A DNA stretch of 32,000 nt from Mycoplasmoides pneumoniae FH (GCF_001272835.1 NZ_CP010546.1:150001-182000), one strand, 5' to 3'; shown: positions 14,346-28,260, numbered from the stretch's first letter. Notes: generated by a model not told the origin, from the sequence alone. Program-made: numbers and translations.

Positions 14346-14450
14346 AGTTGCTTCTAATTGTTAATAGAGATTTACTTTCAAAAAAACTTTTTGGTTTATT
14401 TTTGGTGTCTTTACTAACTTAAAGCAATTTAGTTAGTGTAAAGACTCATA

Positions 14451-15266
14451 ATGTTTAAATTAAAAATTAACAACTTCCAATTAGGTTTCAAACTCGTTCA
14501 GTGACCAGTGACGAACCACCTTCTTAAACATTTTTACGTTTTTCCAATCAATAATAAAGGAGGTCTTGCCATTAAACGCATAATTTCACTTGCTTTGTTT
14601 AAGAAAAGACTTAACAAAGATAAGATTAATAATTGTCATGTTTGGGAAGAAGAGTTACCTGATGGTAGCTACGACATGGGATTTAATGGCAATTTCAACC
14701 ATATGGAAAAACGAAAAAGTGGTTATGTTACCCAAAAGCAGTTTAGCGAGTTCAAAGATGCCAACAATCAGCGTCTCATAAAGATTGAAACTACTTTGGC
14801 TATCCAAGGCGAACAAATCAACAAATTGACTCAAACTGTTGAAAAGCAAGGCGAACAAATCAATCAATTAGTTCAAGTTGTGCTTCTTCAGGGCGAGCAA
14901 ATTAGAGAACTTCAAGTGGAGCAAAAAGCACAAAGACAAGAGTTTAATGCCCGCATGGATCGTTTGGAAAATCTTTTGGTGGAAAGTATAGAATCTACCA
15001 ATAATCGCTTCGACTCTATGGAAAGACGTTTAGACTCTATGGATAGTCGTCTTGATTCTATGGAAAATCGCTTGGTTTCAATGGAAAGCCGTCTTGATTC
15101 TATGGAAAATCGCTTAGATTCAATGGAAGGTCGTCTTGATTCTATGGAAAATCGCTTAGATTCAATGGAAGGTTGTCTTGATTTTGTTGAAGGACGCTTA
15201 GACTCTATGGAAACTCGTTTAGACTCTATGGAAACTCGCCTGGACAAAGTCGATCCGCCCAAATAG
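14451..15266 (+). CDS. DUF16/UPF0134-family coiled-coil protein
   Basis: ATG 14451 reads through TGA 14502-14504 into track ORF 14508..15266 (271 aa). The C-terminal two thirds are heptad coiled coil (QGEQIN repeats, then RLDSMEx units) ending RLDKVDPPK. It is paralogous to the minus-strand genes at 26783 and 27595. Confidence 0.72.
14805..14930 (+). repeat. 42-bp (14-codon) tandem repeat, 3 units, inside the DUF16 gene
   Basis: The units start at 14805, 14847 and 14889 and encode [14 protein letters not shown] / [14 protein letters not shown] / [14 protein letters not shown]. Confidence 0.7.
15006..15236 (+). repeat. 21-bp (heptad) tandem repeat, 11 units, inside the DUF16 gene
   Basis: There are eleven consecutive in-frame 21-nt units encoding R(F/L)DSME-x, with minor variants such as RLVSMES and CLDFVEG. 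They are followed by a degenerate terminal unit, RLDKVDPPK. Confidence 0.9.
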
Positions 15267-15288
15267 TTTTTAGTTAAAAAATAAGGGT

Positions 15289-15330
15289 ATCAGCAGTTAA
15301 TCTTAAAGATTAGTTGCTGGTATTTTTATT
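15289..15330 (+). terminator. Rho-independent terminator after the DUF16 gene
   Basis: A 14-bp stem (atcagcagttaatc / gattagttgctggt, including 3 G-U pairs) with loop ttaaa is followed by atttttatt. Confidence 0.7.
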
Positions 15331-15339
15331 CATTTAATG

Positions 15340-15522
15340 CTTTCTAAAAACTTTTTGTCAATTTTGTTGGCACTTCTAAATTGCTAGTTCAATTTATTAA
15401 GTGGAGGAGCAAAATGCAAATCTTTAATTTTTGAAATTGATCAGTAAAAAATCTGATCACCGTTGGTAGCATTGCTGCAAATAGTAGTTATGTAATTTGC
15501 AAACAGAAAGGAATTTTTCAAT
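15340..15522 (+). repeat. Repeated leader module, copy a (probably part of the RepMP1-type mosaic)
   Basis: It aligns by eye with 18865-19055 (+), 27359-27545 (-) and, more weakly, 28087-28260 (-). The shared core is ttgttggcacttct..agtggaggagcaaaatgcaaatctt..attgatcag-N8-ctgatc..gttgcaagtagtagtta..agaaagga. Confidence 0.6.
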
Positions 15523-15530
15523 ATGAGTAA
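15414..15530 (+). CDS. Candidate 38-codon upstream ORF (leader peptide) MQIFNFWNWSVKNLITVGSIAANSSYVICKQKGIFQYE
   Basis: GGAGG at 15403-15407 lies 6 nt before ATG 15414. There are two in-frame TGA codons. The TAA stop at 15528-15530 overlaps the start region of the downstream ORF (ATG 15523). The frame is preserved in three other copies. Confidence 0.4.
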
Positions 15531-15804
15531 TACAAAAAAATTAAGAATAACTTCAATCGAAGAAACAATAGAAATAATAGTTAATTCAAAACTATTAGCT
15601 TTTGGTTTTTACCCAGTTGGTTTAGAAGATGGAACTTACGAACTTAATGTAAGGATTATTTTTAAAGAAAAAACTGCAGATTCTGAGAAGAGTAGCAGTG
15701 TACATCCTTTACAAAAGGAGTATTATGTAAGGGAATTTTTGAGATTTCTTGAGCGCCATAAAGATTCTCTGGCGCAACAACTATTAGTAGTAGAAGACAA
15801 TTAA
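15523..15804 (+). CDS. Hypothetical 93-aa protein
   Basis: Intact ATG-initiated ORF directly after the leader. It resembles the 68-aa ORF at 19056 weakly (shared ..EDGT.E.. core). Its TAA stop is immediately followed by the ATG of the P1-like ORF. Confidence 0.55.
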   Translation: MSNTKKLRITSIEETIEIIVNSKLLAFGFYPVGLEDGTYELNVRIIFKEKTADSEKSSSVHPLQKEYYVREFLRFLERHKDSLAQQLLVVEDN

Positions 15805-18088: not shown

Positions 18089-18700
18089 CACACTTCTCCC
18101 CCACGCTCACGCGCTTCTCCACCGGGTTCAACCTCGCGGGGTCGGTTCTCGACTAGGTGTTGGATTATGTGCCCTGGATTGGGAATGGGTACAGGTATGG
18201 GAATAACCACCGGGGCGTGGATGATATAACCGCGCCTAAAACCGGCGCGGGGTCGTCCAGCGGAACTAGTACGAACACAAGTGGTTCGCGTTCCTTTCTC
18301 CCGACGTTCTCGAATGTCGGCGTTGGCCTCAAAGCCAACGTCCAAGCCACGCTTGGTGGCAGTCAGAAGACGACTACAGGCGGCTCCAAATGACCCACCC
18401 TCGACCAAGCCAACCTCCTGCTCTGAACCGGCGCGGGGTGAAGGAATGATAAGAACGGACAAAGTGACGAAAACCACACCACCTTTAAAAGCGCTACGGG
18501 CAGTGGCCAGCAGGGTGGTTCTTCAGGTACAAATACCTCAGCGGGGAATCCCGACTCGTTAAAGCAGGATAAAATCACCAAGGAAAGCTCGGGTAACCTC
18601 AAAACGGAGGACGGCGCTGCCAACTCTAACGAAAACAAAGACAACACTAATTATCAAAATTTACCCGCTTATGGGAAAGTTAGTGGGTGGATAACACCTG
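18089..18700 (+). repeat. RepMP2/3 element, short copy
   Basis: It starts with the same sequence as P1 at 31679 (cacttctcccccacgct..ttctccaccgggttcaacc..gtgttggattatgtgccctggattgggaatgggtacaggtatgg). It is visibly GC-rich against AT-rich flanks. Confidence 0.85.
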
Positions 18701-18708
18701 ATTATTAA
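18157..18708 (+). pseudogene. P1-like ORF fragment within the short RepMP2/3 copy
   Basis: It begins at GTG immediately after an in-frame TAG (18154-18156) where both P1 and copy 2 have CAG. It reads through TGA codons to TAA 18706-18708 (183 codons). Confidence 0.5.
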
Positions 18709-18864
18709 TAGGCTTTTTACTTTCCAAAAGTTTTAAAGTTGTTTTGGCACTTTCAAACTTTAAAGACCATTTAAAAGGCATAAAAGGATAGTTATGTCTT
18801 TAAGAAATATTTTGCGATTCAGTTCGCTTTTGGTTTTATTTGGTTTTGAGTCTTTTCTAGTTAA

Positions 18865-19055
18865 TGCTCAAATCTTTTTGCAAAGTTTGTTGTCACTTCT
18901 AAATAACCTACTCAATGTATTTAGTGGAGGAACAAAATGCAAATCTTTAATTTTTGAAATTGATCAGCAAAGCGTCTGATCCCTGTTGGCAACCGAGTTG
19001 CAAGTGTTAGTTATTTTTTAAAAAATCAAAAGAAAAAAGAAAGGAACATTTAAAC
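18865..19055 (+). repeat. Repeated leader module, copy b
   Basis: It has the same core as copy a: ttgttgtcacttctaaat..agtggaggaacaaaatgcaaatctttaatttttgaaattgatcag-N8-ctgatccctgttggcaac..gttgcaagtgttagtta..agaaagga. Confidence 0.6.
18937..19053 (+). CDS. Candidate 38-codon upstream ORF MQIFNFWNWSAKRLIPVGNRVASVSYFLKNQKKKERNI
   Basis: GGAGG precedes ATG 18937. There are two in-frame TGA codons. TAA 19051-19053 ends 2 nt before ATG 19056. Confidence 0.4.
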
Positions 19056-19262
19056 ATGAAAAAAGTTAAAGCATTAAGGAATCTTTTTTTAGAAAAAGCC
19101 AGTGAAAAACTTGAATACCCCAAAATTGCTTCAATGGTAGCTTACTTTGATCCAAAGGAAGATGGTACTTGTGAATTCATTATGAAAATTAAAACTGTCA
19201 ATGAAGTTGCTGACACTGAGACGACAAATAAGGAAAAGCCTTTAGGCACTTGAAAGAGTTAG
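19056..19262 (+). CDS. Hypothetical 68-aa protein
   Basis: Track ORF 19056..19253 extends through TGA to TAG 19260-19262. It is a weak paralogue of the 93-aa ORF at 15523. Confidence 0.5.
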
Positions 19263-19292
19263 TTGATTTTTTGGTCTAAAAAGACATAAATT

Positions 19293-19334
19293 TACCAACA
19301 GTAAGTGTTAAAACTTGCTGTTGGTATTTTTATT
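19293..19334 (+). terminator. Rho-independent terminator
   Basis: A 14-bp stem (taccaacagtaagt / acttgctgttggta, including 1 G-U pair) with loop gttaaa is followed by tttttatt. The RepMP2/3 copy begins immediately after it. Confidence 0.7.
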
Positions 19335-26782: not shown

Positions 26783-27358
26783 CTATTTGGGTGGATCGAT
26801 TTTGTCTAAGCGAGTTTCCATTGAATCCAAGCGATTTTCCATAGAGTCTAAACGTCCTTCAACAGAATCAAGGCAACCTTCTATTGAATCCAAGCGATTT
26901 TCCATAGAATCAAGACGACTATCCATAGAGTCTAGACGACCTTCAATAGAGTCGAAGCGTTTATTGGTGGATTCTATACTTTCAACCAAAAGGTTTTCCA
27001 AACGATCCATGCGGGCGTTAAACTCTTGTCTTTGCGCTTTTTGCTCCACTTGAAGTTCTCTAATTTGCTCGCCCTGGATTCTTATTTGTTCACCTTGGGC
27101 AGCCAAAGTGGTTTCAATCTTTATGAGTCGTTGGTCGTTTGAGTCTTTGTACTCGTTAAACTCTTTGCGCGTTACGTATTCCGTGTTCACTGGTATAACC
27201 GGTTTGTTAAGTTTAAATTGTCTATTGAAATTGCCAGAGAATTCCACACTTTTGTTTTCTGGATTAATGATGTATCAGCCCGAAAAAGTGCCCTTTTTGG
27301 TCTTTTTCATCATCTCGTTAAATTCCTTTTCGTTATAAAACGGAATTTTCTCTTTCAT
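26783..27358 (-). CDS. DUF16/UPF0134-family coiled-coil protein
   Basis: Track ORF 26783..27247 extends upstream through TGA to ATG 27358 (191 aa). The N-terminus is [48 protein letters not shown]. The C-terminus is nearly identical to that of the plus-strand gene at 14451. Confidence 0.8.
26813..26959 (-). repeat. 21-bp heptad tandem repeat, 7 units
   Basis: It encodes [49 protein letters not shown], followed by RLDKIDPPK. Confidence 0.85.
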
Positions 27359-27474
27359 TAATAAGCGACTCCTTTCTTTTCAGTGAAATTTAAAAAGTAA
27401 CTACTACTTGCAACTCAGTTGCCAACAGGGATCAGACCATTTACTGATCAATTTAAAAAATAAAAGATTTGCAT
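27358..27474 (-). CDS. Candidate 38-codon upstream ORF MQIFYFLNWSVNGLIPVGNWVASSSYFLNFTEKKGVAY
   Basis: GGAGG precedes the ATG (plus-strand cat 27472-27474). There are two in-frame TGA codons. The stop overlaps the DUF16 start as TAATG. Confidence 0.4.
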
Positions 27475-27545
27475 TTTGCTCCTCCACTAAATAAATTGAC
27501 CGGCTTATTGAGAAGTGCCAACAAAATTGCAAAAAATTTCAAATG
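27359..27545 (-). repeat. Repeated leader module, copy c
   Basis: The reverse complement aligns with copy a from ggtatttttattcattt through the SD, uORF and agaaagga. Confidence 0.6.
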
Positions 27546-27580
27546 AATAAAAATACCAATAGCAATTTAGCCATTGGTAT
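27543..27580 (-). terminator. Rho-independent terminator between the two DUF16 genes (possibly bidirectional)
   Basis: Hairpin ataccaatggc / gctattggtat (minus-strand reading, 1 mismatch) is followed by ttttatt. A T-run is also present on the plus side. Confidence 0.6.
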
Positions 27581-27594
27581 TTTTTAGTCTACAG

Positions 27595-28086
27595 TTATTT
27601 AGGCGGATCGATTTTGTCTAAACGAGTTTCTATTACGTCGAGGCGTTTACCAAAATCAGTCAAAGTGTTTCCGATTGATTCTAGACTTTTAAGCACAAGA
27701 CTTTCAAAGCGATCCATGCGGGCGTTCATTGCTTCACCCTGGGTTTTGATTTGTTGACTCTGAACCATAACAACTTCAGTTAGTCGATCAACTTTGTCCT
27801 CAACAACTTGAATCCTTTGACCCTGACTCTTTAACTCAGTTTCAATCTTTGTAAGTTTTTGGTCGTTTGAGTCTTTGTACTCGTTAAATTCTTTACGCGT
27901 TACGTATTCTGTGTTCACTGGTATAACTGGTTTGTTAAGTTTAAATTGTCTGTTGAAACTGCCAGAGAATTCCACACTGTTGTTATTTTTATTGATGATG
28001 TATCAACCCGAAAAAGTGCCCTTTTTGGTCTTTTTCACCATGTCATGGAATTCTTTTTCGTTATAAAACGGAATTTTCTCTTTCAT
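27595..28086 (-). CDS. DUF16/UPF0134-family protein (short form without the RLDSME array)
   Basis: Track ORF 27595..27975 extends through TGA to ATG 28086 (163 aa). It has the same N-terminal domain ([48 protein letters not shown]) and ends [10 protein letters not shown]. Confidence 0.8.
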
Positions 28087-28172
28087 TAAGCAATAACTCC
28101 TTTCTGATTAAAGCGGTTCAAAAAACTACTACTTACAACTCTTTGTCATTGGACTTTTCAAAATTTGATCAT
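28086..28172 (-). CDS. Candidate 28-codon upstream ORF MIKFWKVQWQRVVSSSFLNRFNQKGVIA (diverged copy)
   Basis: AGGAG lies 10 nt before the ATG (plus-strand cat 28170-28172). There are two in-frame TGA codons. The stop again overlaps the DUF16 ATG as TAATG. Confidence 0.3.
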
Positions 28173-28260
28173 TGTTTTAATGCTCCTTACTAACTAAATT
28201 GACCCGCTTCATAAAAACTGCCAACCAAGTTCAAAAAAGTTTTTAAGCTATTTTTGCACC
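28087..28260 (-). repeat. Repeated leader module, copy d (diverged)
   Basis: It shares gtcaatttagttagtaaggagca.., gttgtaagtagtagtt and cagaaaggag with copies a-c. The GATCAG/CTGATC hairpin is absent. Confidence 0.45.

Follow-up and report, generated by a model that had tools for sequence, protein, structure and literature searches.

In M. pneumoniae, Shine-Dalgarno (SD) sequences are found ahead of 8.1% of all genes and 3.2% of operon-leading genes, rising to 28% where the gene is joined to its upstream neighbour by a TAATG overlap; the authors ascribed this excess to termination-reinitiation coupling (Weber et al. 2023, PMC10568206). These TAATG pairs are the closest described counterpart of the leader studied here, which has the same junction, with the A shared between stop and start and an SD sequence 8–11 nt upstream, inside the upstream cistron. 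It differs from them in that the upstream cistron is an ORF of 28–41 codons without sequence conservation, for which we infer the coupling. DUF16 genes fit this class only if the upstream ORF (uORF) is counted as the upstream cistron; otherwise they are anomalous leading genes that bear an SD.

The second point of comparison is the RepMP1 family, whose short repeats sRepA and sRepB were reportedly recognized by Forsyth and Geary in 1996. sRepB elements are intergenic repeats of 55–72 nt beside RepMP1/DUF16 genes and have been implicated in the type-2 deletion (PMC3472980). They are the same DNA as the 5′ half of the leader, and sRepB mediates the type-2 deletion at leader copy b; the uORF body, with two hairpins (HP1 and HP2) and the SD of the downstream gene (SD2), sits 3′ of sRepB as published. 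The literature on sRepA and sRepB treats them purely as recombination substrates, whereas here they would be part of an expression leader too. PMC3472980 never uses the word “promoter”, and the passages of it that were consulted mention no SD, uORF or hairpin. One member of the uORF family, mpneu03205, is listed among the small ORFs of RanSEPs as an unclassified putative ORF flagged “Repeated” (Miravet-Verde et al. 2019, PMC6385055), with no link drawn to downstream genes, coupling or structure.

The leader is also reminiscent of trpL attenuation and of the stalling leaders ermCL and cat, with which it shares a short SD-led ORF, a hairpin leader, a gene behind and, in several copies only, in-frame Trp (TGA) codons near the N-terminus. 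Unlike these, it has no terminator/antiterminator alternative after the hairpins (the sole terminator lies upstream of the leader), and no stalling motif or regulatory codon run conserved across lineages, and M. pneumoniae lacks an obvious metabolite logic for such control. With neither alternative structures nor an arrest or codon motif found, an attenuation or stalling leader peptide was rejected. An attenuator was likewise rejected: a T-run begins ~10 nt past the HP2 stem, and the terminator scan calls no terminator there.

The window analysed is a 32,000-nt stretch of the M. pneumoniae FH genome (NZ_CP010546.1, 150001–182000), which was translated with code 4 and carries the block that extends from a DnaJ-like gene, past grpE, parE/parC, hrcA and uvrC, as far as the P1 operon. 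The gene names and MPN numbers for this block are presumably those of the M129 annotation. The strain is of type 2 (S1/FH-like). The DUF16 gene at 26783–27358 (minus strand) measures exactly 576 nt, as does the hybrid mpn138/7, and the window lacks mpn130; both the hybrid and the loss of mpn130 have been described for type-2 strains (Musatovova et al. 2012, PMC3472980). The leader copies in the window have the following features:

15283–15327, plus strand: intrinsic terminator ending the DUF16 gene upstream (MPN127), a hairpin called by the terminator scan as a 20-pair stem followed by a T-run; it adjoins the 5′ side of leader copy a
15346–15413, plus strand: sRepB-type segment of copy a, identified by alignment and absent from PMC3472980 Table 3
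15414–15530, plus strand: uORF copy a, 38 codons, its TAA (15528–15530) within the first codons of the downstream gene
15438–15459, plus strand: HP1 of copy a (TGATCAG-N8-CTGATCA)
15463–15480, plus strand: HP2 of copy a (TTG(G)TAGC-ATT-GCTGCAA); compared with copies b and c, one pair is compensated and one is a U-G wobble
15505–15513, plus strand: SD2 of the downstream gene, AGAAAGGAA, within the 3′ end of uORF a
15523–15804, plus strand: downstream 93-aa gene (MPN128-like; small 68–93-aa paralogue family)
18937–19053, plus strand: uORF copy b, with SD1 at 18926–18930, HP1 at 18961–18981 and HP2 at 18986–19003
27358–27474, minus strand: uORF copy c, with SD1 at 27485–27481, HP1 at 27450–27430, HP2 at 27425–27408 and SD2 (AAAGGAG) at 27375–27369
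27549–27584, minus strand: intrinsic terminator of MPN139, adjoining the 5′ side of leader copy c
28086–28172, minus strand: fourth, diverged copy upstream of MPN139, with AAGGAG-N10-ATG, a 28-codon uORF (MIKFWKVQWQRVVSSSFLNRFNQKGVIA) and a TAATG end

The anatomy of the three MQIF copies agrees with the original prediction. In copy a, GGAGG (15403–15407) stands 6 nt ahead of ATG 15414 and opens a frame of 38 codons with two TGA; the architecture recurs in copies b and c, both with GGAGG-N6-ATG. Each ORF is 117 nt, that is, 38 codons plus a stop, and the peptides read with table 4 are MQIFNFWNWSVKNLITVGSIAANSSYVICKQKGIFQYE, MQIFNFWNWSAKRLIPVGNRVASVSYFLKNQKKKERNI and MQIFYFLNWSVNGLIPVGNWVASSSYFLNFTEKKGVAY for copies a, b and c, with conserved N-termini. 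All three carry two in-frame TGA codons, those of copy c being at other codons (9 and 20). The distance from the uORF ATG to the downstream ATG, when recomputed, is 109, 119 and 116 nt, and the stops fall at +5, −5 and −2 relative to the downstream ATG: in copy b the stop ends 2 nt before ATG 19056 of a 68-aa gene (19056–19262), and in copy c it forms a TAATG overlap with mpn138/7. The competing frame, used by an ORF from 18794 at copy b, is closed in copies a and c, as had been claimed. A 44-nt core has three matches in the window at ≤2 mismatches, against 0 expected from shuffles. Absent from the original prediction were the fourth copy, the two covarying hairpins in the ORF and the membership in the RepMP1 mosaic.

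The sRepB-type segment of copy a holds a promoter-like TTGTCA-N16-TAAATT (15355–15382), a match that is not above chance, together with a nearly invariant CAATTTATT(A/T)AG block and SD1. Since strong terminators lie directly upstream of the leader, transcription of the downstream gene should begin inside the leader, in the sRepB-type segment. By the M129 coordinates published in PMC3472980 Table 3, sRepB membership holds for copy c and for the copy upstream of MPN139: M129 179019–179073 is the segment 5′ of uORF c, and 179723–179778 corresponds to window 28181–28241 (MPN139 anchor, offset 151,534), where the fourth copy, whose hairpin module is deleted, has its sRepB-type segment.

Further leaders were located by BLAST in DNA around family proteins (regions L121–L133), which covers MPN037/038, 094, 100/104, 130–139 (type 1), 145/151, 368, 410, 675 and a locus at ~570 kb; the census is thus a partial one, of about one quarter of the genome. 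Two assemblies used, CP179094.1 (L128) and CP179177.1 (L132), are ~857.8 kb long, compared with the usual 811–818 kb. The window and these regions together yield 18 leader loci, each followed by a RepMP1-core/DUF16 gene or by a gene of a small family encoding 68–93-aa proteins. Seven of the 18 are of the MQIF type, behind which the small paralogue family is found (MKKVKALRNLFLEK...EDGTCE or MSNTKKLRITSIEE...EDGTYE); Pfam has no domain on record for those members whose genes were called in these regions. The small genes and the diverged uORF starts are placed as follows:

window 15523–15804 and 19056–19262; L122 2912, L123 294, L127 15635 and L132 11818: small paralogue family
before MPN037: uORF starting MHRNNF
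before MPN145: uORF starting MLNFLN
before MPN130: uORF starting MLFINK
before MPN137: uORF starting MITLEK
before MPN139: uORF starting MIKFWK
before MPN368, MPN094 and in an L132 copy: uORF starting MCNVF
before MPN100 and MPN410: uORF starting MKTNKK

An ATG-started uORF of 28–41 codons is kept in all 18 loci, which bears out the expectation that the frame would be preserved over indels and divergence; the other copies do not carry stops or frameshifts in it. The uORF ends in TAATG, its A shared with the downstream ATG, in all 12 RepMP1-core/DUF16 copies, and its stop is at −5, +5 or +11 in the six copies before small-protein genes. One exception is the L127 copy before an 88-aa gene, in which the hairpin module is lost and the uORF, in another frame, runs 67 codons into the gene. 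The diverged copies were located by DNA similarity or position and not by ORF calls, so that open frames were not favoured by the way in which the copies were found. Among 14 copies (four further intact copies lie outside this count), no stop is found in the uORF frame, whereas the other two frames contain 64 (28 frame-copies). After dinucleotide shuffling of the interior, the chance of an open frame is 0.14–0.42 per copy, and the product over eight lineages is ~7×10−6, a value that is anticonservative since the 3′ halves are homologous; the openness statistics are all anticonservative because the copies share ancestry and recombine. The openness of the frame is clearly non-random, with an uncertain exact P. 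The spacing from HP2 to TAATG, two landmarks that are independent of frame, takes only the values 39, 42 or 45 nt.

A comparable short uORF precedes only 4 of ~75 non-DUF16 genes (≥150 aa), as against 7 of 7 DUF16 genes, and among 85 long ORFs, 11 have a short uORF ending between −10 and +15, seven of them before DUF16 genes. For the small-protein genes, stops occur near the start in both alternative frames (TTTAAACATGAAAAAAGTTAAAG), and a stop near the start is therefore partly automatic. Among the four non-DUF16 cases of this background is the CARDS toxin gene (L121 13490; Pertussis_S1/CARDS domains), where a 53-codon ATG-started upstream ORF (L121 13345–13503) ends 14 nt into the gene.

All copies have SD2, AAAGGAG/G, 8–11 nt ahead of the downstream ATG, a position within the 3′ end of the uORF. 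SD1 has degenerated to GGAAG in two copies, and the MCNVF, MKTNKK, MITLEK and MLNFLN copies lack it. The rarity of SD sequences in M. pneumoniae, to which the original prediction appealed, is also seen in the sequence analysed, where a 5-mer SD core precedes 4 of 71 long ORFs. The uORF thus has what is expected of an upstream cistron: its own start codon, a stop overlapping or near the downstream start (L127 being the one exception), and the SD of the downstream gene in its 3′ end. In two cases the leader is intact though the downstream small gene is broken, by an internal TAA in L121 and by a change of ATG to ATT in L125. Orphan sRepB fragments without an ATG exist as well. A search with the loose pattern GGAGGNNCAAAATGCAAAT returned at least 120 stretches from unrelated organisms, with no Mycoplasma among the matches listed.

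Given these features of the sequence, we consider the chances about even that the uORF is translated, is indifferent to its own sequence and is coupled by termination-reinitiation to the SD-bearing downstream genes. We infer a transcript beginning ahead of the uORF ATG, translation of the uORF, and coupling. The leader would be a cassette of the RepMP1 mosaic, arranged in the order terminator of the upstream gene, sRepB-type segment, uORF, SD2, and stop at the downstream start. The sRepB-type segment probably holds the promoter and would supply SD1, and the uORF of 28–41 codons would carry the two RNA hairpins. Ribosomes may load at the uORF, melt HP1 and HP2 as they translate it, and terminate where the downstream gene starts; there SD2 would retain the 30S subunit and promote reinitiation. 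The DUF16 or small-protein gene would thereby have its expression tied to translation of the uORF, and the peptide would be a by-product. To our knowledge, this ORF has not been interpreted before as a coupling uORF; the repeat and the ORF annotation are already known.

We then considered the RNA structure of the leader. RNAalifold, applied to 12 alignable leaders, recovers exactly two hairpins, HP1 with 5 bp and an 8-nt loop, and HP2 with 7 bp, a 3-nt loop and a bulged G. Covariation is seen at three pairs (A-U/U-A, G-C/A-U and A-U/G-C), and three cells are U-G wobbles. The paired cells amount to 98.6%, compared with 93.1% in shuffles (0 of 500 reach the observed value) and 11–45% when the partners are slid, and nine compensatory cells are observed where 2.5 are expected (0 of 500 shuffles). 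These results give moderate support to a conserved core of two RNA hairpins with compensatory changes; the support is moderate because ~3–5 independent events underlie the covariation. The U-G pairs, in three sequences and only 3 cells, make a sense-strand RNA somewhat more likely than a DNA operator for the HP1 palindrome. The folding energy of the whole leader is unexceptional relative to shuffles (z = −1.7 to +0.6), and our claim is therefore limited to the two local hairpins. Structures that would sequester SD2 or the AUG are predicted in some copies, inconsistently between copies. A known structured RNA family was rejected: Rfam 15 gives no family match, the sole hit being FuFi-1 at chance level, outside the leader (16.7 bits versus a gathering score of 59.6).

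The strongest rival explanation is that the leader is an untranslated, structured 5′ region, a two-hairpin RNA serving stability, processing or protein binding, in which the open frame is incidental. The covariation and wobbles described above would be accounted for, as would the clustering of substitutions in loops, the absence of codon periodicity and the lack of detection by mass spectrometry (MS), which are described below. This explanation has difficulty with the copies that keep the ORF without the hairpins: MQIF-type hairpins are missing in four lineages that retain it, being absent upstream of MPN139 and MPN137 and not alignable upstream of MPN100/410. The open frame is thus more universal than the structure. 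Moreover, a GGAGG-N6-ATG within an mRNA would normally be used, and neither the whole-leader energy nor Rfam lends the explanation weight. We regard it as unlikely, and in our preferred reading HP1 and HP2 would be an additional conserved RNA feature beside the coupling uORF. If the leader is translated, the hairpins would be crossed by the ribosomes on their way to the downstream start.

Leader b (window 18700–19300) is itself a recombinant, identical to the type-1 leader upstream of MPN130 up to 18931 and to that upstream of MPN131 from 18918. The crossover (18918–18931) lies within TATTTAGTGGAGGA, at SD1, and 680 nt (mpn130) are deleted, which matches the published type-2 model. The ORF from 18794 can be explained by this crossover, as the 5′ part of a type-1 84-codon ORF that is now out of the uORF frame. 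It is conceivable that the leader is a recombination module at the DNA level only, maintained by gene conversion among RepMP1 copies, with an ORF that has no role in expression. The recombinant nature of copy b, the published involvement of sRepB in the type-2 deletion and the near identity of the b-type copies to one another are all in keeping with such a module, but it leaves unexplained the ATG-to-TAATG frame in old, barely alignable copies, the compensatory changes in the stems and the conserved SD2. We consider it improbable as a full account.

Longer upstream ORFs raise a further alternative. ORFs of 83–90 aa have been annotated automatically through the sRepB segment before MPN100, MPN410 and MPN130, where they extend the uORF upstream:

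L127 9750–10001: ORF of the 83–90-aa group
L128 9729–10001: ORF of the 83–90-aa group
L126 12492–12746, minus strand: ORF of the 83–90-aa group

The one before MPN410 in M129 (mpneu02739, 494422–494694, 90 aa) is classified as coding by RanSEPs with a score of 0.74, but it was detected in 0 of 116 MS experiments and its RNA is very low (log2 cpm 0.58). These automatic gene calls and the RanSEPs score could mean that the 83–90-codon ORFs are the intact form of an ancestral upstream gene of ~85–90 aa, of which the 38-codon ORF is a truncated relic. This is very unlikely in our judgment: beside the lack of MS detection and the low RNA of the single copy looked up, 1-nt indels shift the reading frame of the sRepB part between copies, and the long ORFs before MPN100 and MPN410 cross an inverted repeat and T-rich run recognized by eye (AACAAGTT-N7-AACTTGTT-CCTTTGTTT).

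The uORF peptide itself shows no sign of selection. Eight copies align without indels over 27 codons, where the variable columns number 11/14/11 at codon positions 1, 2 and 3. The summed pN/pS is 0.87 in the uORF frame, and the same alignment gives 0.93 and 0.62 when read in the other two frames; the codon-position bias for which a check had been proposed is therefore lacking, and on this alignment the peptide is judged not to be under selection. The family alignment reads M..NF.NWS.K.LIPVG...ASSSYFLN..KKGG.A. The seemingly conserved residues (L-I-P-V-G, A-S-S-S and K-K-G-G) coincide with the hairpin stems and the downstream SD, and the N-terminal halves are unrelated between lineages. In M129, the copy at 570322–570438 (mpneu03205, 38 aa) is a “Putative New ORF” of type “Repeated” in PMC6385055 Dataset EV3, with a log2 cpm of 2.97 (threshold 4.6) and a RanSEPs score of 0.21, not classified as coding. 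The proposed search for peptides found none for this copy either, and MS detection in RanSEPs Dataset EV3 is 0 of 116 experiments for each of the two members looked up (mpneu03205 and mpneu02739). Sequence and coordinate searches of the accessible parts of the ProTInSeq and Lluch-Senar 2015 supplements gave no match, which is a weak negative. A functional small encoded protein was thus rejected on selection and periodicity and on peptide detection, the latter for two members.

The claim that the uORF had not been described does not survive. Peptides b and c are already annotated as hypothetical proteins in FH (ADK87000.1; MPNE_0162, MPNE_0174, MPNE_0428 and variants), 309 (BAL21711.1) and an NCTC genome (VEU57359.1), one member is in RanSEPs Dataset EV3, and the 5′ half occupies the sRepB position. 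Peptide c is identical on 451 contigs, an identity that says little because M. pneumoniae strains are nearly clonal. A profile search returned six 90%-identity clusters, all from M. pneumoniae; the protein query was the 38-aa peptide padded with 5 in-frame upstream residues. P0004, a 688-aa DnaX-like protein (ENA) in the 90%-identity cluster of the 38-aa peptide (P0001), is evidently a clustering artefact. Despite these automatic annotations and the family alignment, a genuine functional small protein is highly improbable, because codon periodicity is missing, pN/pS is no better than that of the control frames and MS detected neither of the two members looked up. Between the leader peptide and the small protein originally offered as alternatives, the part that stands is a translated coupling or regulatory uORF, which is the best reading.

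A second leader type is found before MPN127, MPN151, MPN038 and MPN675, in which an sRepA-like segment is followed by an ORF of ~41 codons (...NNKGG). Copies are located as follows:

window 14371–14700, plus strand: second leader type
L125 12330–12600: second leader type
L129 and L130: second leader type

At MPN151 the ORF stops at CAT-TAA, overlapping the ATT that opens the conserved frame, and this frame is open from −86. At MPN038 and MPN675 an in-frame stop stands 17 nt ahead of the ATT with no ATG, GTG or TTG in between, which hints at reinitiation from the ATT in this leader type; the second-type copies at MPN038 and MPN675 are degenerate. In MPN127 of the window, a 1-nt difference fuses the second-type ORF in frame, giving a 271-codon ORF from 14451.

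Beyond coupling at single genes, we put forward tentatively, and as a rather unlikely extension, that the leader is a portable expression adaptor of RepMP1 recombination. A cassette of terminator, promoter, SD, uORF and SD2 would be swapped before RepMP1-core/DUF16 or 68–93-aa genes through sRepB and HP1/HP2 homology, and whichever downstream module it reached would be expressed by reinitiation. Such an adaptor would allow non-ATG starts, such as the ATT at CATTAAA junctions of the MPN151 type. If this is true, the largest paralogue family of a minimal genome in which SD sequences are otherwise little used would have uORF reinitiation as its common translational entry.

As the reference “minimal cell”, M. 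pneumoniae serves to model quantitatively how genes are transcribed and translated; in such models SD sequences are rare and apparently relevant only to coupled downstream genes. If the uORFs are translated, ~20 DUF16/RepMP1 genes that now count as SD-bearing leading genes would become second cistrons, which would remove the anomaly and provide a family-wide case of uORF-driven reinitiation. The RepMP1 short repeats would then be expression signals in addition to recombination substrates, and type-specific rearrangements such as the loss of mpn130 and the mpn138/7 fusion would rewire leaders as well as coding regions. If the uORFs are untranslated, the covarying hairpins would still define an undescribed 5′ leader structure specific to this family.
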